Part shown: positions 12,552 to 21,413 of the stretch, piece by piece | How the letters are laid out: each line of letters starts with the position of its first letter | Position numbering within the stretch: the first letter of the stretch is position 1 | From: a candidate division FCPU426 bacterium | GTDB taxonomy: Bacteria; Oederibacteriota; PGYV01; Palsa-1178 | Assembly (NCBI GenBank): GCA_003167475.1 | Contig: PMTB01000098.1 | Span: forward strand, 1 to 42,515 | DNA: 42,515 bases | Direction of reading: 5' to 3' | Made by a program: the position numbers and the translations under genes | The notes under the pieces: generated by a model | What the model was told of the DNA's origin: nothing | Database searches by the model: none | What the model saw: only the letters and a program-made list of their open reading frames with translations

Positions 12552-14999
12552 TTAAACGGCTATACTTCCGACAAGGAACGGTTTTGACCCCTGCAGGAAG
12601 TCATTTTTGTCCGCGTCCGGGGCGCCGGAGAGTCCCGTCAGCTCATCCAGGACCGCGTTCCAGTTGTACTCATTGAGCACCATCTGCCGGGCCTGTTTTT
12701 GCATTTCATACAGCGCCGGGTTATGTGTTTGGCTCATGAAAATAAGTTTGTTGATCTTTTCCGCCCAGTCATTTATGTCGTTTGCCCGCGCCACGAAACC
12801 GGTGACCGAGTCCTTCACGATTTCCTTTGGGCCTCCGGCGTTGGACACCACCGCCGGAACAGCGCAGGACTGGGCCTCGAGCACCGACATGCCAAAGGTA
12901 TCGGTGTTGCTCGGGAAGACAAAGATATCCGCGCCGGAAATAATGGCCGGCATGACCTGCTGTGCGTGTTTTCCTGTAAAGAAGACCCTTTTTAATGCGC
13001 GGTATTTTTCCTTCAATGCCGCAAGCGACGGGCCGTCGCCGGTTATTATAAGGTTCAAAGAACTGTTCTGCTGGGAAAGTTTCTTGTATACCGACAACAG
13101 GAAATCAAGGTTCTTGTCCTCTGAAACCCTGCCTGTATACAAAAGCGTAACGCCTTCGGGCAGTCCTATCAATTCCCTTAAAAATGTCCTTCCGCCCTCG
13201 CGCGGCGAAAACAAGGCCGCGTCTATGCCGCGCTTGAACAGCGTCATTTTTGAGGGGTTAAAACCGCGGCTTTCCAGTATATCGATGTATTCGGCGGACG
13301 GGACCTTTATCTCGTCCATTGAAGAGTAAAACCAGCGCGTGTAGGACTCTATGATCCCGGTCGCGGATTCGTCATTTATCAGGTTCACGGACTGGGAAGT
13401 GAAGTCGGTGTGATACACGCCCGTGCATTTGGTGCCGGTGAGCTTCGCCGCGAGGTACCCAAGAAGTCCCACAGGGCCGGGGGTCGAGATTATTATCTCA
13501 TCCGGCTCAAAGGCGTATATTTGCCTTATGGATTCCAGCACCGACGGTATCTTGACGCTATATTTGTCGTAATAAGGTATCTTAAAAGTGTGTATGAACG
13601 GGAAGTTTATGGTTCCCGGAGGTATGGAGGCGTTCATCTCATCCTTTGGAATGCTGGTCGCTATCGTGATGTTCCTTTTGTGCAGGTGCGAGTTCCATCC
13701 CAGCGTCTTGAGCGTGACAGACACGCCGTTCAAGTCGTTCAGTGTGTCGGTGAACCAGAGTATTTTTTTACCGCCCTTTTTCCTCAAAGCCTCAAATGAT
13801 TCTGCGTATTTATTGACGACGGAGCGGCCCTTGTAAATGTGCTTGATAGTCGTGAAAAAGGGCGCTGAAAGGAAAAGCGTCATTATGGAAGAAGATACAT
13901 TTTTGATAAGTGAAGCCATGTCGCCTTTGGCAAAGTCGGTTTCCGCGGAAATAAGCAGGTTTTTAAGGAAAGTATCCGCAATGCCGGTTATCTTGGAATA
14001 CACAATATCAAGTTTATCCTCGGCCGGGAGCTCGTTAGAGTCCTTCAGTGAGTCTACAAGGTCGACTATAAGCGACTGTATATCAGGCGCGTTCTTGCCG
14101 CCGAAATATTTCGCTTTGCTTACTTTCAGGTTGTTTTTTATCCCGAGTTTTTTCTTTTCGAATATATACTCCGTGAGCTGGCTTATGATCGAGCCGGACA
14201 TACCGGAGCCTTTTCTTTTTGAAAAATCATAGGCTATCTTGTAGATAGCGAAAGCCAGGCCCTTGAAATCATTATTGCGGCCGCCCGCAAAAGTGGTCTT
14301 GTCCCTGAGCGCTTCCAGGTATTGGGCCGGGGTTACGGCGTTTTCGGCGCAGGTGAATGTCCTGCCGATGAATATGCCCGCATGGTCATCCGAGCCGCCG
14401 GTAAAACCCTTGACCCACGGGTCGCAGCTCATCGGTTCTATCTTATATTTGTCATAAAGCGTTTCCACGTATGCCTGGTCCAGGTTCTTCAGTATCGAAG
14501 TCCAGGTCGAGTTGCTTGAAGAGTCCCTGCTGCCGTTTATACTTTCAAAAACGTCGAAAAGGAGGATGAGCTTTTCCAGGTGGCTGACATCGAGTTTTCC
14601 GTTGACCGAATATGATGCATGCGCCACGGAGTAGGCTATAGAGTGTTCTTTTATGAAATTCCGGAGTTTATATATATCGGTCCTGAGTTTCTGCACCCTC
14701 ATAAACTCCTCTTCGGTAATTCCGTAAAGAAGTATATGCACCTTGCATCCGTCCTCGGGAAAGTAAGCTGTCACTTCAACTCCTGTAAAAGTGTCGGACG
14801 GGTGCTTCGCGTGCAAAAGAAAGGATCCTTCTATGGTGTTATGGTCGGTGATCGTGACGAAATCCATGCCCTTTTCTTTGGCTTCCTTATAGATGAATTC
14901 CGGCTCGGTGTAACTCTCCGACGCGCCTATCCTTTGCAGGAACCATTCCGAAGGGTGTTCCGAGTATCTTGAGTGGACGTGAAGGTCTGTTTTTGCCAT
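12552..14999 (-). CDS. PHP-domain phosphoesterase fused to a GT4 (group 1) glycosyltransferase
   Basis: N-terminal PHP motifs: DLHVHSRYSEHP, TITDHN, GVEVTAY, KVHILLYG, FTGGSDDHAG. The C-terminal ~380 aa form a GT-B/GT4 domain (ILWFTDT..., LLYTGRVSEDKNLDFL, FVFPSNTDTFGMSVLEAQSCAVPAVVSNAGGPKEIV). RBS AGGAGA upstream. Confidence 0.85.
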   Translation of the reverse strand: MAKTDLHVHSRYSEHPSEWFLQRIGASESYTEPEFIYKEAKEKGMDFVTITDHNTIEGSFLLHAKHPSDTFTGVEVTAYFPEDGCKVHILLYGITEEEFMRVQKLRTDIYKLRNFIKEHSIAYSVAHASYSVNGKLDVSHLEKLILLFDVFESINGSRDSSSNSTWTSILKNLDQAYVETLYDKYKIEPMSCDPWVKGFTGGSDDHAGIFIGRTFTCAENAVTPAQYLEALRDKTTFAGGRNNDFKGLAFAIYKIAYDFSKRKGSGMSGSIISQLTEYIFEKKKLGIKNNLKVSKAKYFGGKNAPDIQSLIVDLVDSLKDSNELPAEDKLDIVYSKITGIADTFLKNLLISAETDFAKGDMASLIKNVSSSIMTLFLSAPFFTTIKHIYKGRSVVNKYAESFEALRKKGGKKILWFTDTLNDLNGVSVTLKTLGWNSHLHKRNITIATSIPKDEMNASIPPGTINFPFIHTFKIPYYDKYSVKIPSVLESIRQIYAFEPDEIIISTPGPVGLLGYLAAKLTGTKCTGVYHTDFTSQSVNLINDESATGIIESYTRWFYSSMDEIKVPSAEYIDILESRGFNPSKMTLFKRGIDAALFSPREGGRTFLRELIGLPEGVTLLYTGRVSEDKNLDFLLSVYKKLSQQNSSLNLIITGDGPSLAALKEKYRALKRVFFTGKHAQQVMPAIISGADIFVFPSNTDTFGMSVLEAQSCAVPAVVSNAGGPKEIVKDSVTGFVARANDINDWAEKINKLIFMSQTHNPALYEMQKQARQMVLNEYNWNAVLDELTGLSGAPDADKNDFLQGSKPFLVGSIAV

Positions 15000-15057: not shown

Positions 15058-15116
15058 TTAATCCAATGTTAATTTCCGGTTAATTCCACGAGAGGCCATA
15101 TTAACGATAAATTAAA
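15058..15116. promoter_or_regulatory. Five phased TTAAY repeats (candidate Pho boxes) in the divergent PHP-GT4 / GAK-cluster promoter region
   Basis: TTAAT at 15058, 15069 and 15080 have exact 11-bp spacing. TTAAC at 15101 and TTAAA at 15112 are also 11 bp apart. Confidence 0.45.
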
Positions 15117-15160
15117 AATTAATTTACCGGCTGTTAATTGGCGGTGTGTATAAGTGTGGC

Positions 15161-16360
15161 ATGACAAAAAAACTAAAAGTGTTTGAGACAGGCGTAAGCG
15201 CCAAGGCGTCAAAAGGGCTTGAGTATGAGTTTATTGACACCCGCGAAATAAGCGGGGATATTGAAGAGTGGGAACTTAAGGCTTTTTTACGGGTTGTGTC
15301 GGCTGAATTAAGCCCGGAGCAGGAAGACGCCATAGTCAATCCCGGGAATTCTTTTCACCTTCAGCAGGATGTCCTGGCGGTTCACTGGCATCCCGAACAC
15401 ATTCCCTTTACCATGTTAAAGCAGAGGATAGCGAAGCTTTATCCGGACGCTACAAACACGCTTATAATTCCGACCCAGCACAATACGCTGCTGGAATTCG
15501 ACGGCTATGCGGGTCTTGAGATAGATTGCTACTCCCCGGAATTTGACAGGAAGGTGCAGTTGCTGCTCCACTTTACTTCGGAAAAGGCCCTTGCGGCGGA
15601 TAAGATCAGGGTTATGGCGGAGCACACATTCAAATACAGGTCAAAACAGCTTTTTGAAATACTTCACACCCTTACAGAGCCGGCTTTGGACGGCCCGCTT
15701 TATAAAGCCATGGAATCCACGGAAGCCGGGGAAAATATCGTCGGGTTTGTAAAAATATACGCGGGTAAACTTATCAAACTGATAGAAGAAAACGAGGGCT
15801 CCATAAAGCCCGATTTCATAAAAAACAAGATCATACGGGATTTTTTTGATGAATTAAGGGAAGTGTACGACGGGCATGTCATCAACCTGTCGCAGATATT
15901 CATCAAGGCCGTCAAGGAAAATGTCAAGGCTGTGTTTTCGCCGAAATATTTCTATAAGACCCAGGATGTAATTTCCGAAGCAAGGCTCTGCGGAGGCGGG
16001 ATCGTGGTTCCGCATCCGGAGCAGTTCTGGCCCATACTGCTCGCCGATTATGACGTGGATGGTTTCGAGGTCTGGAACCCGCAGTCCAGGCAGTATACGG
16101 AGTTCCTCACAGGCGTTGTGGCAAGGAACAATAAGGGCAGGAAAAATCAGGACAGGCCGCTGCTTGTTTTTATGGGGGATGACACTCATATGGGGGAAAA
16201 GATAAAGAAACCGTCGCTGCGGGACCCTGATAAAGCCTCGCGCGAAATAGGAATGCAGCCTGCCTGGGACGACCTTGATATACGGCAGGCTCTTAAGGAT
16301 TCGCGCGTTTCAAGGGCGCAGACTATAAATGAATACAGGCAAAGGCTCGACCAGGCCTGA
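15161..16360 (+). CDS. Divergent PHP-like phosphoesterase-family protein (first gene of the GAK-type cluster)
   Basis: PHP-like motifs AVHWHPEH, VVPHPEQFW, DGFEVWNPQS and FMGDDTHMG resemble the HxH, HP, EvxN and GxDxH motifs of the neighbouring PHP-GT4 protein. I prefer the ATG at 15161 to the listed GTG at 15146. Confidence 0.65.
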   Translation: MTKKLKVFETGVSAKASKGLEYEFIDTREISGDIEEWELKAFLRVVSAELSPEQEDAIVNPGNSFHLQQDVLAVHWHPEHIPFTMLKQRIAKLYPDATNTLIIPTQHNTLLEFDGYAGLEIDCYSPEFDRKVQLLLHFTSEKALAADKIRVMAEHTFKYRSKQLFEILHTLTEPALDGPLYKAMESTEAGENIVGFVKIYAGKLIKLIEENEGSIKPDFIKNKIIRDFFDELREVYDGHVINLSQIFIKAVKENVKAVFSPKYFYKTQDVISEARLCGGGIVVPHPEQFWPILLADYDVDGFEVWNPQSRQYTEFLTGVVARNNKGRKNQDRPLLVFMGDDTHMGEKIKKPSLRDPDKASREIGMQPAWDDLDIRQALKDSRVSRAQTINEYRQRLDQA

Positions 16361-16377: not shown

Positions 16378-16665
16378 ATGTCGGGTTCAAACGAGGATTT
16401 TAAGTATGAGTCCCTTCAGGACAGGAACTCCATCGCCAAGTACCTGGACGCTTTAAAGGACGGTTTCTCCAGCGGGAAACTTATTTTGGGAAGCAAGGAA
16501 AAGCAGATTGTTTTCGAGCCGTCGGGGCTTTTAAGGCTTGAGGTAAAAGCCAAACGGAAGGGCGACAAGGTGAAGATCAGCCTGAAATGCAGCTGGCGGG
16601 AGCAATCACAGACAAAAGAACAAAAAGGCGAGTCTCTTGTAATAGAGTCAAAAAAGCAGGGGTGA
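16378..16665 (+). CDS. Amphi-Trp domain small protein, paralog 1
   Basis: The 95-aa protein aligns without gaps to the three ORFs at 20340-21413, with invariant G, P, A, K and W (SWRE). RBS GGGAGGTG upstream. Confidence 0.75.
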   Translation: MSGSNEDFKYESLQDRNSIAKYLDALKDGFSSGKLILGSKEKQIVFEPSGLLRLEVKAKRKGDKVKISLKCSWREQSQTKEQKGESLVIESKKQG

Positions 16666-16668
16666 TGA

Positions 16669-18312
16669 ATGGAATTCATCAAGGCAATAGAACAGAACTT
16701 CAAGTTCATGACGCTTGAGGTAACAAAACAGCTTGAAGATACAATGAAACTGCTGGAGTCCCCGTCAAAGGCCCTTGCGGATAAAATAAGGTCCAGGGAT
16801 GACTATATAGATAACATGAAAAGTATTATCGAGAACAAGAATTCCTCATATGTCGCGGCATGCCAGAATCTTGACAAAAAGACGCTCAATAATGTCTGGG
16901 CGCTCAACACCATAGCGCATAACCTCGAGCACATAGCCGATCTGGCGGTGAATATCACGGATCAGACACAGTATTTTTCCGACCCGGGGAGCATGAAGCG
17001 GTATGACTATCACTCTTTCTTTAAAAAAATATTTGACGCACTGGCAATCACACCCAGGGCTTTTTTAACCGGCTCGATAAGCCACGCGCTTAAAATATGC
17101 AATGCCGAACACGAGATGGATTTGTTATACGCAATCGAACTGAAAAACGTCATAAACGAACTGAAATTCTCCCGCGACGCGGGCAACCTTATAACGGTTA
17201 TTTTTATATTCCAGTTCGCAGAGCGCATAGGAGACTCGCTTTTGAACATAGGCGAGGCGGTCATATCATCTGTAATGGGCGAAAAAATGAAGATACACCA
17301 GTACCAGGCGCTTGAAGAGACCATAACGGACGAGGATGAAAAGAGCAGGGTATCCGAGTTTTCCCTTGAGTCGGTGGGCGAAACGCGTTCCGGCAGCCTT
17401 ATACGGAAAGTGTATGAACCCGGCAATGAGGCCTCGGCTTCGAAATGGGTGGTATTTAAGGAAGGCAACAAGGTCAAATTGGAGAAGGAAAAGGAAAATG
17501 TGGAGGCTTGGGAGAAAATATTCCCGGGCCTCCCCCCTAAAATATTCGGTTACCAGGCGAACGGAAAGAGCGCGTCGATTATTTTCGAGTACTTGAACGG
17601 CAGCAATATGAAGGACGTGGTTATCAATGAAAAGAACCCTGCCGTCAGGGAGGCCCTCGGCCTGACAGCGGCCACGCTTGACATGGCATGGACCCGGACA
17701 ATGAAAAAACAGCCTGTGCACGCAGGCTACCTTGACCAGCTCGCGTCGCGCATCGGGGATGTTTTCACGGCCCATCCGGATTTCATGATGCACGAGAACA
17801 AGATCGGCGGGCTGGAGCTTCCTTCGTTCGACCAGATGATAAAAAAGGCCGGCGCCATAGAGAAAAAAATGGAAGCGCCGTTCACGGTTTTTATACACGG
17901 CGATTTTAACGTGGACAATATCATTTTCAACAGGGAGGAGAGGCGCATCAACTTCATAGACCTTTACCGCTCTTCCTATAACGATTATGTACAGGATGTG
18001 TCGGTCTTTATAGTTTCAAATTTCAGGATGCCGTTCTTTGAGCCTGCCATACGCAGGCGTTTGAATTCCGTTATACATGATTTCCTTGGTTTTGCCTCTG
18101 ACTTCGCAAAAAGAAACGGAGACGTAACTTTTGAGGCAAGGCTCGCCATGGGGCTCATAAGATCGTTCATCACATCGACCAGATTTGAATTCAACCAGGA
18201 ATTCGCGAAACTGATGTATTTAAGGGCGCTTTACCTGATAGAAAAGGTCATCTCTCACGATGGAAAACCCTGGGAAGATTTCGAGGTTCACAGGGATGTT
18301 TTGATATATTAA
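16669..18312 (+). CDS. PhoU-like domain fused to an APH/choline-kinase-like phosphotransferase domain
   Basis: The N-terminal ~200 aa carry two PhoU repeats (RDDYIDNMK...LEHIADLAVNITDQ and AEHEMDLLYA...AERIGDSLLNIGEAV). These parallel the bona fide PhoU at 29367-30026 (NAIDMVE...LERIGDLAANIG; RDHEVDELY...LERMADHVTNIAEDI). The C-terminal domain has the kinase-like catalytic loop FIHGDFNVDNIIF and the metal-binding motif INFIDL. Confidence 0.8.
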   Translation: MEFIKAIEQNFKFMTLEVTKQLEDTMKLLESPSKALADKIRSRDDYIDNMKSIIENKNSSYVAACQNLDKKTLNNVWALNTIAHNLEHIADLAVNITDQTQYFSDPGSMKRYDYHSFFKKIFDALAITPRAFLTGSISHALKICNAEHEMDLLYAIELKNVINELKFSRDAGNLITVIFIFQFAERIGDSLLNIGEAVISSVMGEKMKIHQYQALEETITDEDEKSRVSEFSLESVGETRSGSLIRKVYEPGNEASASKWVVFKEGNKVKLEKEKENVEAWEKIFPGLPPKIFGYQANGKSASIIFEYLNGSNMKDVVINEKNPAVREALGLTAATLDMAWTRTMKKQPVHAGYLDQLASRIGDVFTAHPDFMMHENKIGGLELPSFDQMIKKAGAIEKKMEAPFTVFIHGDFNVDNIIFNREERRINFIDLYRSSYNDYVQDVSVFIVSNFRMPFFEPAIRRRLNSVIHDFLGFASDFAKRNGDVTFEARLAMGLIRSFITSTRFEFNQEFAKLMYLRALYLIEKVISHDGKPWEDFEVHRDVLIY

Positions 18313-18323
18313 AGGAGAAAAAA

Positions 18324-19211
18324 ATGAAAAACAAAAAGATCGGCGTTGTGGGCATAAAGGACGCGTGGTCGACCGAGATGCTGGCATCCGCCATAGAAAA
18401 ACGCACGGGTTTCTGCAGGATCATCGACGTTGAACAGTTGTCTGTCGACCTGGATTCAGGAAGGGCAATGCACGGCGGCGAGGATATTACGGATTATGAC
18501 GCGCTTATCATTAAAAAGATTGGCAGGGATTACAGCCCTGATATGCTCGACAGGCTTGAAATGCTCAGGTTTTTAAACCGGCGGGGCTTGAAAATATTCT
18601 CGAAACCCGAGAACATCATAAGGGTGCTGGACCGGATGTCGTGTACCGTGTCGCTAAAGCTCGGCGGGATACCGGTTCCGCCGACGGTGATAACGGAAGA
18701 TATAAATGAAGCGCTTGTGGCCGTAAAAAAGTTCAAGAAAGCGGTCTTCAAGCCTTTGTATTCCACCAAGGCAAGGGGAATGGAGATCATTTCCGATACG
18801 CCGCGGGCGCATGATGAAATTGAGAAGTTTAAGGAATCCGGAAATACGGTGATGTACGTGCAGAAAGCGATCGAGATAAAGGATATGGACCTCGGCCTTG
18901 TTTTTGTGGGAGGGGAATACCTTTCGACTTATGCCAGGGTAAAGCAGACTGACTCATGGAATACCACGACGCAAAGCGGCGGAAAATACAATATATTCAA
19001 CCCTTCAAAAGCCGTGATAAAACTCGCGGAAAAAGCACAGGCGATATTCGGCCTTGATTTTACATGCGTGGACGTGGTGGAAACCGATGACGGGCCGTAT
19101 GTCTTTGAGGTTTCCGCGTTCGGGGGTTTCAGGGGCGTTTACGAGTCAAGCGGAATAGAGGCCGCGGAAGTGTATTTAAACCATGTCCTAAAGGAGATCA
19201 AACATGCTTGA
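18324..19211 (+). CDS. RimK-like ATP-grasp ligase (GAK-system type)
   Basis: ATP-grasp layout: GIPVPPTVIT, AVFKPLYSTKARGM and VMYVQKAIE, with C-terminal DFTCVDVVETDDGPYVFEVSAFGGFRG. The stop overlaps the next gene by 8 nt. Confidence 0.85.
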   Translation: MKNKKIGVVGIKDAWSTEMLASAIEKRTGFCRIIDVEQLSVDLDSGRAMHGGEDITDYDALIIKKIGRDYSPDMLDRLEMLRFLNRRGLKIFSKPENIIRVLDRMSCTVSLKLGGIPVPPTVITEDINEALVAVKKFKKAVFKPLYSTKARGMEIISDTPRAHDEIEKFKESGNTVMYVQKAIEIKDMDLGLVFVGGEYLSTYARVKQTDSWNTTTQSGGKYNIFNPSKAVIKLAEKAQAIFGLDFTCVDVVETDDGPYVFEVSAFGGFRGVYESSGIEAAEVYLNHVLKEIKHA

Positions 19212-20322
19212 AAAAGTCAGCACTGTCACGGAAATCGCGGAAGCCCTGTCAACCGGACATGCGCCGGATCAGTCACTGAGGCTTGAGTTCGGGGAATGCA
19301 CCATCGAGGTAAAATCAGACTCAAAAGCCCTGATAGACAGGCTGAAGGAATATTATAAGGAATTTTTGGGGAAAAAATTGCCCGACATACAGGTGCTGGC
19401 TTTTGAGATCGCGGAACCCAAATTTGACTTTATTTTCATGAAAAAACCGCCCGAGCCGGGAAAATCAAAGATCAAAGAGGAGTTTTTTGATTTGCGCGAC
19501 GGAAGGGTGGTAAGAAAAATACTCACGGGGATGTATTTCATTTTCGGCCGCGGCATTAACATCGCGGCCGGCAACTGCCTGCAAAATTACAACCAGGTGG
19601 TCAACTTTATAAACAACAGGTATATAGAGAGGATGATAAAAAGGGAGTGCATGCTCATGCACGCGGCGGGGGTGGTGCTCAAGGGCAAAGGCATCGCGAT
19701 CGCCGGGTTCGCGGGAAGGGGCAAATCAACGCTCGCGCTTACCCTGCTCAACCGCGGGTTGAAATTTCTAAGCAACGACAGGGTGATGGTGAAAAAATAC
19801 GACGGCGGCACCCGCATGTACGGCATACCAAAACTTCCCAGAGTGAACCCGGGCACCATACTCTCCAACCCGGTACTGGGGAAAATACTCACCGAAGAAG
19901 AACGGCATGAATTTGAAAAATACACCCCGGAAAAGCTCTGGGAACTTGAGCATAAGTTTGACGTCGACATAAGCGAGATATACGGCTCCGACAGGTTCTC
20001 TCTTCAGGCGGAGATGAAAGCGCTGGTCATAATCAACTGGGACCGCAACGGGGACGAACCATTCGCCATAACCGAGGTTGACCTGGTCGGACGGCCTGAC
20101 CTTGTGCACGCGTATATGAAACTGCCGGGTTTGTTCTTCGAAATGTCGGAAGATACCAAACCCCCGGATTTTTCCGAAGCCGCCTATATAAACTGCATGA
20201 AAAGCTGCAGGGTTTTTGAGATAACGGGTTCGGTGAATTTTGAGGAAGCGGCCGAACACTGCATAAGCCTGCTTGAGGACGTAAAAACAGCCGGTATTAC
20301 CGGCCTGAACGCAAGTAAATAA
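19204..20322 (+). CDS. HPr-kinase-related P-loop kinase (HprK-related kinase B type)
   Basis: The Walker A segment GIAIAGFAGRGKSTLALTLLNRG followed by LSNDRV matches the HprK/P core GxSGxGKS...DD. It is translationally coupled to the ATP-grasp gene. Confidence 0.8.
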   Translation: MLEKVSTVTEIAEALSTGHAPDQSLRLEFGECTIEVKSDSKALIDRLKEYYKEFLGKKLPDIQVLAFEIAEPKFDFIFMKKPPEPGKSKIKEEFFDLRDGRVVRKILTGMYFIFGRGINIAAGNCLQNYNQVVNFINNRYIERMIKRECMLMHAAGVVLKGKGIAIAGFAGRGKSTLALTLLNRGLKFLSNDRVMVKKYDGGTRMYGIPKLPRVNPGTILSNPVLGKILTEEERHEFEKYTPEKLWELEHKFDVDISEIYGSDRFSLQAEMKALVIINWDRNGDEPFAITEVDLVGRPDLVHAYMKLPGLFFEMSEDTKPPDFSEAAYINCMKSCRVFEITGSVNFEEAAEHCISLLEDVKTAGITGLNASK

Positions 20323-20339
20323 TATGGGGAGGTTTTGAA

Positions 20340-20627
20340 ATGGGAAAAAAGGAGATCAAGCTTAAAGGCAATCTGGAGACCGTGAAAACCGCCGAGTACC
20401 TGATCGACCTGGCGACAAGCCTGAAAGCCGGGGACGTGTACATCCAGAAAGGCGGGGAATTCGTTTCGTTAAAACCGGGCGCAGTTGTGGATTTTGAGAT
20501 CGAAGCGGTGAAGAAAAAACACAAGGAAAAGCTGGTCATCGAGATAAGCTGGCACACCGACGGCAAGGATGAATTCGGAGGTGATGAAATGAAAATTTCC
20601 TCGCCTGATTTAAAAGAGGCGAAATAA
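20340..20627 (+). CDS. Amphi-Trp domain small protein, paralog 2
   Basis: 95 aa, RBS GGGGAGG. Conserved core AEYLIDLATSLKAGDVYIQKGGEFVSLKPGAVVDFEIEAVKKKHKEKLVIEISWH. Confidence 0.75.
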   Translation: MGKKEIKLKGNLETVKTAEYLIDLATSLKAGDVYIQKGGEFVSLKPGAVVDFEIEAVKKKHKEKLVIEISWHTDGKDEFGGDEMKISSPDLKEAK

Positions 20628-20693
20628 GCGTATCCGAAAAAAGACGGTATGAATATCCCGGCTTTTAAGCCGAGGAAAAACAAGGAGGATGAC

Positions 20694-21023
20694 ATGGGAA
20701 AAAAAGAAGTCGAAATGAAGTCGAAGATGGAGATCGAAAAGGCAATCGAGGTAATTGAAAGCCTTCTTGCCGGCCTTAAAAAAGGCAAGGTTTTTGTGCA
20801 GCACGGCGATAAGGTAATAGAGATCACGCCTGAGAAAATGGTAAAACTGGAAGTTGAAGCCGAGCAGAAAAAGGACAAGGAAAAGATATACGTCAAGATG
20901 ACGTGGCATAAAAAGGACCTCACAAAAGAGATCGAAAAAACCATCAAACACAAGGAAAAAGAGGACGAAAAAGTTTTCAAGATAACCCAGACCGCTCCGG
21001 TCATTGAAAACGGCAAGAAATAG
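20694..21023 (+). CDS. Amphi-Trp domain small protein, paralog 3
   Basis: The start is set at the internal ATG 20694, preceded by AGGAGG (20683-20688). This gives MGKKEVEMK, parallel to MGKKEIKLK of paralog 2. The listed ORF start (20649) lacks an RBS. Core ...GLKKGKVFVQHGDKVIEITPEKMVKLEVEAEQKKDKEKIYVKMTWH. Confidence 0.7.
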   Translation: MGKKEVEMKSKMEIEKAIEVIESLLAGLKKGKVFVQHGDKVIEITPEKMVKLEVEAEQKKDKEKIYVKMTWHKKDLTKEIEKTIKHKEKEDEKVFKITQTAPVIENGKK

Positions 21024-21056
21024 GAAAATGGCGTTTTACGGCCGAAAGGATGCAAA

Positions 21057-21413
21057 ATGGGATCGGACAAAAAGACCGTAAATTATGAAGGCCTGATCAG
21101 GACTTCCAAGGCCTGCGAATACCTTGAAGGCGTGCTATCCGGGCTTAAAGCCGGGGCTATTTACATTAAAAAATCCGACGGTTGTACGGTCTTAAAACCG
21201 TCCGGGGGATTGAAACTTAAGGTAACGGCCTCGGAAGGCAGTGAAAAAAAGAAACTGAAGATCGCAATGAAGTGGCGCAGGGATGAGGACAGTTCGGACG
21301 GCGGAGAGCTTTTAATAACGCCGACTGAAATTGTCGAAGCGCTCGGGCTTTTTATGAAGAAAAAATCCGCCGCACGGGCAATCAGCAAAAGGCGGGCCAA
21401 GAATAAACAATAA
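21057..21413 (+). CDS. Amphi-Trp domain small protein, paralog 4 (basic C-terminal tail)
   Basis: Core CEYLEGVLSGLKAGAIYIKKSDGCTVLKPSGGLKLKVTASEGSEKKKLKIAMKWR. It has an extra C-terminal tail, KKKSAARAISKRRAKNKQ. Confidence 0.7.
   Translation: MGSDKKTVNYEGLIRTSKACEYLEGVLSGLKAGAIYIKKSDGCTVLKPSGGLKLKVTASEGSEKKKLKIAMKWRRDEDSSDGGELLITPTEIVEALGLFMKKKSAARAISKRRAKNKQ

Follow-up and report, generated by a model that had tools for sequence, protein, structure and literature searches.

Four amphi-Trp genes in one operon

The window analysed in this study is a stretch of 42,515 nucleotides (nt) (positions 1 to 42,515 of contig PMTB01000098.1) from a candidate division FCPU426 bacterium. It contains an operon of the GAK system, which is a computationally defined system (TIGR04354 to TIGR04358, and PF20068), and the subject here is a set of four small genes of this operon, named AT1 to AT4. 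Judged from their profile scores, their products are members of the amphi-Trp family, which is catalogued but uncharacterised; public sources name the homologues 'amphi-Trp domain-containing protein'. The operon reads, in order, a gene for a PHP-fold phosphoesterase (the lead gene), AT1, a PhoU::APH fusion, an ATP-grasp ligase, an HprK-related kinase B (HprK-B), AT2, AT3, and AT4. AT1 to AT4 are the small-protein components of a GAK operon that has no CofD-like gene.

All four genes lie on the forward strand, and all four products exceed the curated cut-off of 31 bits for TIGR04354 (amphi-Trp) in the NCBIfam profile scan. AT1 (16378-16665, 95 amino acids (aa), 74.3 bits) belongs to the upstream class (U-type) described below and has its family tryptophan, Trp73, at nt 16594-16596. 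AT2 (20340-20627, 95 aa, 56.6 bits; Trp71 at nt 20550-20552) and AT3 (20694-21023, 109 aa, 58.1 bits; Trp71 at nt 20904-20906) belong to the downstream class (D-type), and AT4 (21057-21413, 118 aa, 40.8 bits; Trp73 at nt 21273-21275) is a fast-evolving D-type gene. The Pfam model PF20068, with a cut-off of 27 bits, is passed by AT1 (40.9) and AT2 (38.7), while AT3 (21.6) and AT4 (21.1) stay below it.

An earlier note, made from the letters of this DNA, had described four open reading frames (ORFs) that align without gaps around invariant G, P, A, K, and W residues. This was confirmed by the TIGR04354 scores and by a MAFFT alignment, which has no internal gaps from column 5 to column 75, even though pairwise identity among the four is only 20-33%. 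The invariant residues are G33, P48, A58, K64, K66, W73, and E85 in AT1 numbering. The short motifs that the note had placed after the Trp were also found in all four proteins, 11-23 residues behind it: LVIES in AT1 (residues 87-91, nt 16636-16650), followed by KKQG and the stop codon; MKISS in AT2 (residues 84-88, nt 20589-20603); FKITQ in AT3 (residues 95-99, nt 20976-20990), after a 23-residue K/E-rich linker; and LLITP in AT4 (residues 85-89, nt 21309-21323), followed by a conserved TEIVEALGLF segment and a basic tail. The linker is acidic in AT2 and AT4 and K/E/Q-rich in AT1 and AT3. The tail of AT4 is as strongly basic as had been noted, with nine Lys or Arg within the last 18 residues. 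The four proteins end in Gly, Lys, Lys, and Gln, respectively. AT1 has in addition an N-terminal motif not mentioned in the earlier note, F-K-Y-E-S-L-Q-D (residues 8-15, nt 16399-16422), of which ESLQD occupies residues 11-15 (nt 16408-16422).

AT1 to AT4 are real genes under purifying selection. The Shine-Dalgarno sequences are clear for AT1 (GGAGG, 8 nt before 16378), AT2 (GGGGAGG before 20340), and AT3 (AAGGAGG, 7 nt before the ATG at 20694) and weaker for AT4 (AAAGGA before 21057). Because of its Shine-Dalgarno sequence, the AT3 start at 20694 is favoured over an upstream ATG at 20649. The metagenome contig L109, from a close relative, shares the four-paralogue layout and likewise continues into phoBR-pst. 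Between the window and this contig, the proportion of synonymous differences (pS) is saturated at 0.74-0.84, while that of nonsynonymous differences (pN) is 0.10, 0.10, 0.13, and 0.29 for AT1, AT2, AT3, and AT4, respectively. Even AT4, the fastest-evolving paralogue, has a ratio of nonsynonymous to synonymous rates (dN/dS) of about 0.1. Since the 2.7-Mb assembly has no amphi-Trp match besides these four genes and pN is far below pS, the pattern that they share is not due to chance. Loci L015 to L017 have one-to-one orthologues of AT2 as well as orthologues of AT3. The only orthologue of AT4 is P0012, which is found on two metagenome contigs (L109 and L110), and the stretch best conserved between AT4 and P0012 comprises the tail motif and the TEIV-ALGL segment.

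An antisense ORF (20297-21070, reverse strand, 257 aa) covers AT2 and AT3. It has no family match and was treated as spurious, because the family matches, the ribosome-binding sites, and the purifying selection are all on the forward strand; it is probably an artefact that arises from the purine richness of the coding strand. None of the sampled sequence words was present in three metatranscriptome runs of the source study. The PADLOC defence models gave a single, chance-level match (AT3 against DruG, E = 0.0068).

The post-Trp motif and the classes of amphi-Trp proteins

Is the motif behind the Trp a feature of the family? A search with a profile of the paralogues returned 1,853 clusters (50% identity) at E ≤ 1e-3. 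Among the best 150, 99 of 154 representative sequences have a strict hydrophobic-x-I-[ST] motif 9-17 residues behind the Trp; with shuffled tails, 4.8 would be expected. In an alignment of 103 homologues, the motif Ile is kept in 99, which rivals the scaffold residues G (101), P (102), and W (103); the Trp, invariant here, is also present in all four paralogues. The residue at position -2 of the Ile is hydrophobic in 96 of 103. A Ser or Thr stands at +1 in 66 and at +2 in 67, and at one or the other in 93 of the 103, while the tail background is 12.5% per position. The consensus of the tail motif is [DE]-L-K-I-S-S-x-E-P-E. The Pfam model, with 93 positions, includes the motif, whereas the TIGRFAMs model, with 67 positions, ends at the Trp. 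The multiple alignment proposed in the earlier note thus answers the question: since the Ile, the hydrophobic residue at -2, and the Ser/Thr at +1 or +2 are kept across the 103 sequences, the post-Trp motif is conserved family-wide. A word-indexed protein search with the 103-sequence profile returned close relatives only and no archaeal members.

An AlphaFold2 model of AT2, built from the same alignment, has a mean confidence (predicted local distance difference test, pLDDT) of 85, with the domain above 90. A helix (residues 14-30) is followed by four strands (33-37, 40-44, 51-59, and 62-70), the last of which ends just before Trp71. Over residues 72-95 the pLDDT falls from 71 to 46, and no secondary structure is assigned. 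The tail motif therefore probably sits on a flexible arm of the monomer, a placement that itself belongs to the low-confidence part of the prediction; only the monomer was predicted, and addition of a strand in an oligomer is compatible with the model. As modelled, an amphi-Trp protein is a domain of about 70 residues, made of a helix and a four-stranded amphipathic sheet, followed by a probably flexible linker of 11-23 residues, the linear motif hydrophobic-x-Ile-(Ser/Thr)-(Ser/Thr), and a variable tail. Foldseek with the AT2 model gave no match in the PDB below E = 1, and a search of the PDB sequences with the paralogue profile gave chance matches only. Amphi-Trp domains also occur in natural fusions, two or three to a protein; in the two-domain protein P0032, each domain is followed by a motif of its own.

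Related loci were gathered across phyla with an alignment of the ATP-grasp ligase, with one genome per species. Comparison of their amphi-Trp sequences indicates an upstream and a downstream class that are conserved across phyla. The upstream class consists of the genes between the lead gene and the PhoU::APH gene, and its products are about 90 aa long. In a tree of the core domain, the upstream clade (support 0.77) holds 69 of 74 upstream genes together with 6 of 57 downstream genes. In 70 of the 74 upstream proteins, phi-x-[IV] (phi being a hydrophobic residue) lies 14-17 residues after the Trp. These 70 proteins tend to stop soon after it: in 41 the C-terminus is within three residues of the motif Ile or Val, and in 26 the final residue is Ser or Thr (for example, ...TLNIDT, ...TINISS, ...LSIGS, and ...VKISS). 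The commonest final residues are S (20), G (10), E (8), and N (8). A Ser or Thr at +1 or +2 of the tail motif is present in 49 of the 70.

The upstream class has a further mark at its other end. The N-terminal motif F-x-phi-E-S-phi-Q-D, seen in upstream genes of L027-L104, is found in strict form in 51 of 74 upstream proteins, most of the others retain the Ser in a closely similar variant, and a conserved [ST]-I follows 6 residues after the Ser motif; only 3 of 57 downstream proteins have E-S-phi-Q-D. This N-terminal Ser motif is a candidate for a second functional site. In 68 loci, the median gap from the stop codon of the upstream amphi-Trp gene to the start of the PhoU::APH gene is 5 nt, which suggests that the two proteins are synthesised in a coupled manner; in the window, the AT1 stop codon lies 3 nt before the PhoU::APH start. 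These results suggest that AT1 belongs to an upstream class of ancient origin whose translation is coupled to that of PhoU::APH.

The downstream class lies after the HprK-B gene or the CofD-like gene, and its copy number and tails differ by lineage. The motif is accompanied by Ser/Thr in 43 of 56 downstream proteins, that is, in 43 of the 47 motif-bearing copies. The tails are of low complexity, reach more than 100 residues, and are either acidic (E/P/A-rich) or basic (K/A/P-rich), so the basic tail of AT4 is not unusual. Many of the tails are long repeats rich in Lys/Ala/Pro, with a net charge of up to +17, and resemble histone-H1-like or polyanion-binding tails, while other members are strongly acidic with E/P/A; L024 10001-10531, L116 4785-5258, and L036 11293-11871 are loci at which such charged tails were noted.

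A third, orphan class has the pattern FKSEE...ELEW...G-V-S-I-G-stop and is encoded far from any cassette, with neighbours such as clpB/feoB or mlaD/LytTR (examples are L105 7983-8264 on the reverse strand, L106 7684-7968 on the forward strand, L112, L115, and L117). It was found also in Desulfovibrionia genomes without the GAK ATP-grasp. Long-tailed, downstream-like copies occur in four GAK-less genomes, and none of them has a proper motif (AIRILP, none, shifted, and none); the comparison comprises these four cases only, which are not phylogenetically independent. In cassettes without HprK-B, three of the four upstream genes have no Ser/Thr; at least two of these genomes encode HprK-B elsewhere and the taxa are related, and this comparison was not counted as evidence. 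From the other sequences, my reading is that phi-x-Ile is family-wide, while the adjacent Ser/Thr appears to go with cassette-linked copies, the latter part on the four non-independent GAK-less cases.

The GAK cassette and its phosphate context

The lead gene (15146-16360, forward strand) encodes a cryptic protein of 404 aa with no Pfam or NCBIfam match. Its AlphaFold2 model (pLDDT 88) has RNase AM (9etk) and BAD_1165 (3e0f) as the top Foldseek matches (E = 1.5e-5, probability 1.0), with a helical insertion of about 120 residues (145-262), and the motifs HWHPE, PTQHN, PHPEQFWP, and MGDDTH are invariant in 29 orthologues. By its predicted fold, the product is a metal-dependent phosphoesterase of the PHP family. 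The next enzyme gene (16669-18312, forward strand) encodes a PhoU domain fused to an APH/choline-kinase-like kinase (Pfam PhoU, 3.4e-19; APH, 3e-10), a fusion present in essentially every cassette examined. It is followed by the GAK-system ATP-grasp ligase gene (18324-19211, forward strand), whose product belongs to the RimK/LysX/MptN superfamily and scores 446 bits for TIGR04356 against a cut-off of 300. The PDB sequences closest to this ligase are LysX, RimK, ArgX, and the LysX-LysW complex. The best non-GAK model is MptN, at 158 bits, which is far below the cut-off of that family. The HprK-B gene (19204-20322, forward strand; TIGR04355, 452 bits against a cut-off of 200) encodes a P-loop kinase with GFAGRGKST ... 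SNDRV, which can be aligned to the HPr kinase/phosphorylase of L. casei over about 70 residues around the P-loop only. The ligase and HprK-B genes (18324-20322) are located between AT1 and AT2. Divergent to the operon lies a gene for an 815-aa fusion of a PHP domain and a GT4 glycosyltransferase (12552-14999, reverse strand; Glycos_transf_1, 2.4e-34, with a weak PHP match), and the fusion gene is next to the cassette in all seven related loci, in the order seen in the window.

A GAK-type CofD-like protein (TIGR04357) was not found in the cassette or in the assembly, which is 87% complete; the best score was 79 bits on another contig, against a cut-off of 340. The CofD-like gene is also absent from the cassettes of six related loci that extend past HprK-B. 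None of the nine cassette proteins scanned with NCBIfam matched TIGR04358 (XXXCH). A gene elsewhere (L063 7224-7817, forward strand, 197 aa) follows the second amphi-Trp gene of its locus; its product has a weakly amphi-Trp-like N-terminal half in which Tyr replaces the Trp, and a helical C-terminal half with a weak cytochrome c'-like Pfam match that ends in ...KKSCHSDHK. This is probably a GAK XXXCH protein.

How common is the cassette? In the one-genome-per-species scan, the GAK ATP-grasp was found in at least 573 species, from Desulfobacterota, FCPU426, Nitrospirota, Nitrospinota, and Planctomycetota to Ignavibacteria, Acidobacteriota, SAR324, Rhodobacteraceae, and Halomonas. Across 80 loci from about 10 phyla, the genes keep a conserved order, the commonest arrangement being the lead gene, an amphi-Trp gene, PhoU::APH, ATP-grasp, HprK-B, a CofD-like gene, and an optional second amphi-Trp gene. 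The seven related genomes have the divergent PHP::GT4 gene, the lead gene, one amphi-Trp gene, PhoU::APH, ATP-grasp, HprK-B, and two further amphi-Trp genes, and none of the seven has AT4. Among 45 loci with full flanks outside the clade of the window, 2 have no amphi-Trp gene in the cassette, 18 have one, and 25 have two, so the four genes of the window are the maximum seen. The CofD-like enzyme is encoded in 35 of these 45 cassettes.

In the phylum of the window, 8 of 99 genomes have the GAK ATP-grasp, and these same 8, and no others, have amphi-Trp genes. In a sample of 121 Desulfovibrionia genomes, all 58 ATP-grasp-positive genomes are also amphi-Trp-positive, and 12 further genomes have amphi-Trp only. 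The co-occurrence is therefore strict in one direction, from the ligase to amphi-Trp. The cassette is patchy, being found in those 8 of 99 genomes and in neither of two genomes (G001 and G002) of the genus of the window, and this suggests gain or loss as a unit. The public labels of the close relatives of the window conflict with each other (Spirochaetia, Goldbacteria, and FCPU426).

On the 3' side, the cassette is followed by phoB, phoR, a porin-like gene, pstS, pstC, pstA, an ABC-ATPase-sized ORF, and phoU; the ABC-ATPase-sized ORF after pstA is called pstB by its position. The divergent promoter region of the GAK operon has 11-bp-phased repeats of TTAAY-N6-TTAAY (15058-15115, no strand assigned). 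This pattern has 13 matches in the window against 0.72 expected, including those at 850, 5098, 5173, 15058, 15069, 15100, 21523, 24040, 26415, and 31426, and the GAK operon, phoB, the porin gene, and pstC all have matches in front of them, while others lie elsewhere. It is a candidate for a Pho-box-like operator of the local Pho regulon, and the GAK operon appears to be part of a local phosphate-starvation regulon.

Taken as a whole, the window shares with the GAK system the above-cut-off ATP-grasp, HprK-B, and amphi-Trp proteins and the gene order, but it differs in having no CofD-like gene, in having four amphi-Trp genes rather than the usual zero to two, and in being directly joined to phoBR-porin-pstSCAB-phoU. 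This is a form of the GAK system without CofD, rich in paralogues, and embedded among Pho genes.

What the tails may do

The earlier note had taken the motif and its flanking acidic residues for candidate acceptor sites of the neighbouring kinases and ligase. By analogy with the relatives of these enzymes, I favour the reading that amphi-Trp proteins are acceptor or carrier proteins of the cassette enzymes, with the tail motif as both handle and site, and I would put its probability at about 0.45, slightly below an even chance. I infer all the chemical steps of this mechanism. The hydrophobic-x-Ile residues would dock the exposed tail in a groove of an enzyme. The neighbouring hydroxyl would then be phosphorylated, possibly repeatedly, by HprK-B, the APH-like kinase, or both, and the ATP-grasp ligase would attach an amino acid, either at a carboxylate close by or at the group already installed. 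Removal of the mark would fall to the PHP phosphoesterase, and through the PhoU domain the cycle would be coupled to phosphate status. A bolder form is doubtful, namely that this is a new, phosphate-status-gated modification in which the HPr-kinase-like enzyme and the PhoU-fused kinase would load the tail Ser/Thr beside the phi-x-Ile handle with one or more phosphates or with a group linked by a phosphodiester, the ligase would extend this mark, and the PHP enzyme would erase it, with the acidic or basic tails directing it to different partners.

The acceptor reading is favoured, in the first place, because, among solved structures, the nearest relatives of the ligase all use the acidic C-terminal tail of a small protein as the site of ligation. 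In the pairs of LysW with LysX or ArgX and of S6 with RimK, the ATP-grasp enzyme has as its acceptor a small protein whose acidic tail is flexible. However, those proteins are modified on a C-terminal Glu, whereas the window proteins end in other residues and Ser, Thr, Gly, or Asn is the usual final residue in the upstream class, and amphi-Trp has no sequence or fold similarity to either LysW or S6. In the second place, the cassette kinase can be aligned to HPr kinase and is of the HprK lineage, whose members phosphorylate a Ser of a small protein, as with Ser46 of HPr. The amphi-Trp proteins of the window themselves have no Pfam match besides Amphi-Trp that would indicate a PTS-HPr domain, nor a PDB match at E < 1 in Foldseek that would indicate its fold. 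In lasso-peptide clusters, kinases resembling HPr kinase place one or several phosphates on the C-terminal Ser of the precursor peptide (PMC9266682). Many upstream-class proteins end in phi-x-I-x-Ser/Thr, which recalls the C-terminal Ser in the kinase-type lasso peptides (PadeK, ThcoK, SyanK, and PsmK). In the window, on the other hand, AT1 has four residues after its Ser and no protein ends in Ser, and no lasso B/C enzyme family was found among the cassette proteins in the Pfam and NCBIfam scans. In the third place, the phosphoesterase of the cassette could reverse such a mark. The co-occurrence of ligase and amphi-Trp genes, the conservation of the motif, the purifying selection, the 5-nt gap, and one ORF in which HprK-B and amphi-Trp are joined also argue for the acceptor reading.

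Several points weigh against it. The joined ORF (L048 1013-2446, forward strand, 477 aa), from a metagenome-assembled genome of Nitrospina, is the single such sequence in 5.8 billion proteins; it is weak evidence because it is a singleton and may result from a missed stop codon. Modification of an amphi-Trp protein is reported nowhere, and the searchable literature holds no functional study of the family or of the GAK system. The best conserved residues of the motif are hydrophobic, as would be expected of a strand or a docking element. The orphan copies retain a phi-x-I-Gly C-terminus with no GAK enzymes adjacent, some of them in genomes that have no ATP-grasp at all. The N-terminal Ser motif of the upstream class is even better conserved than the tail motif. 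No window protein ends in Glu, unlike the substrates of RimK and LysX, and Ser91 of AT1 is four residues from the C-terminus. Finally, MptN is a glutamate ligase for a small molecule, and its place as the best non-GAK match, together with the CofD-like enzyme in most cassettes, is compatible with small-molecule chemistry. Thus, the acceptor-site claim of the earlier note stands in part: the motif is family-wide, it lies on a low-confidence tail, and the relatives of the enzymes act on small proteins or peptides, but the hydrophobic residues are its best conserved part and the orphans keep them.

It is possible, though less probable than the acceptor reading, that the post-Trp motif is a fifth beta-strand joining the exposed edge of the sheet in its own or an adjacent amphi-Trp domain, that the paralogues form homo- or hetero-oligomers serving as scaffolds or regulatory subunits, and that the kinases, the ligase, and the CofD-like enzyme build a phosphorylated, glutamylated small molecule and do not modify the proteins. 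The alternating hydrophobic pattern of phi-x-I, its retention in the orphans, and the tandem fusions, with one motif for each domain in P0032, would all suit a strand. MptN and CofD are both tied to cofactor-tail chemistry, and F420/methanopterin tail biosynthesis (CofD, CofF, and MptN) resembles the GAK system in the MptN-like score of the ligase and in the CofD-like enzyme of most cassettes. The scores are, however, far below the cut-offs, no cofactor biosynthesis genes lie nearby, and the window cassette has no CofD. The literature mentions amphi-Trp in a proteomics table, in which such a protein is among the 20 most abundant of Dissulfuribacter thermophilus (PMC13490349), as would be expected of a structural protein. 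In the AlphaFold2 model, by contrast, the motif is undocked, at pLDDT 46-71, and forms no strand, although this model is of a monomer and is compatible with docking in trans. Moreover, the Ser/Thr beside the Ile is far above background, which a pure strand does not explain, and the closest solved relatives of the ligase all act on protein tails.

It is unlikely, in turn, that the amphi-Trp proteins are substrates whose acceptor lies elsewhere, at Ser12 of F-K-Y-E-S-L-Q-D in AT1 or at a Glu or Asp of the linker, with the tail motif used for docking only. The contrast between the classes in E-S-phi-Q-D (51/74 against 3/57), with the Ser nearly always kept among variants, would fit such a site, as would the tight coupling of the upstream class to PhoU::APH and the fact that only 49 of 70 upstream proteins have a Ser/Thr at +1 or +2 of the tail motif. 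The N-terminal motif, however, stands immediately before the predicted helix, for which it may serve as a structural cap (in AT2, the corresponding part is modelled at pLDDT 87). In addition, the downstream class is without it and yet has the tail Ser/Thr in 43 of 47 motif-bearing copies.

Far less probable is that the amphi-Trp proteins are precursors like those of ribosomally synthesised and post-translationally modified peptides, in which the domain would be a long leader and the tail a core peptide that is modified, cleaved, and released. Several paralogous small genes beside an ATP-grasp and an HprK-like kinase do recall graspetide and kinase-type lasso clusters, and the tails are hypervariable. 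However, the cassettes yielded no protease, cyclase, or exporter in an annotation that was aimed at cassette components and Pho genes only. The graspetide ligase models of the microviridin type (MdnC/MvdC; TIGR04185 and TIGR04187) match the cassette ligase weakly, with E-values of 1e-7 to 1e-10 as opposed to 3.4e-134 for the GAK model, and stay far below their cut-offs. An upstream-class core would have about 5 residues, and the long tails are of low complexity, rich in E/P/A or K/A/P. Least probable of all is that AT3 and AT4 are decaying or superfluous duplicates without a role of their own: AT4 is missing from the seven related genomes, evolves fastest, and has the lowest family-model scores, and zero to two copies suffice in the 45 other cassettes, but all four frames are intact with ribosome-binding sites (the weaker one at AT4), pN is far below pS in all of them, and AT4 has kept its motif and TEIV-ALGL segment best.

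The earlier note had also read four divergent copies as a sign of a substrate family or a heteromeric assembly. The upstream and downstream classes, present across phyla, fit this idea, while the number four turns out to be the extreme of a variable copy number and not a defining feature. New in this study are the quantified family-wide motif, the split into upstream, downstream, and orphan classes, and the contrast between cassette-linked and GAK-less copies. The window is thus an ordinary, though unusually paralogue-rich, member of the family. For the widespread GAK cassette, the tail handle, the class split, and the N-terminal Ser motif provide concrete, testable sites. If the tails are not modified, the amphi-Trp proteins would be scaffolds of a small-molecule pathway; if they are modified, they would represent a new post-translational branch of the bacterial phosphate response.

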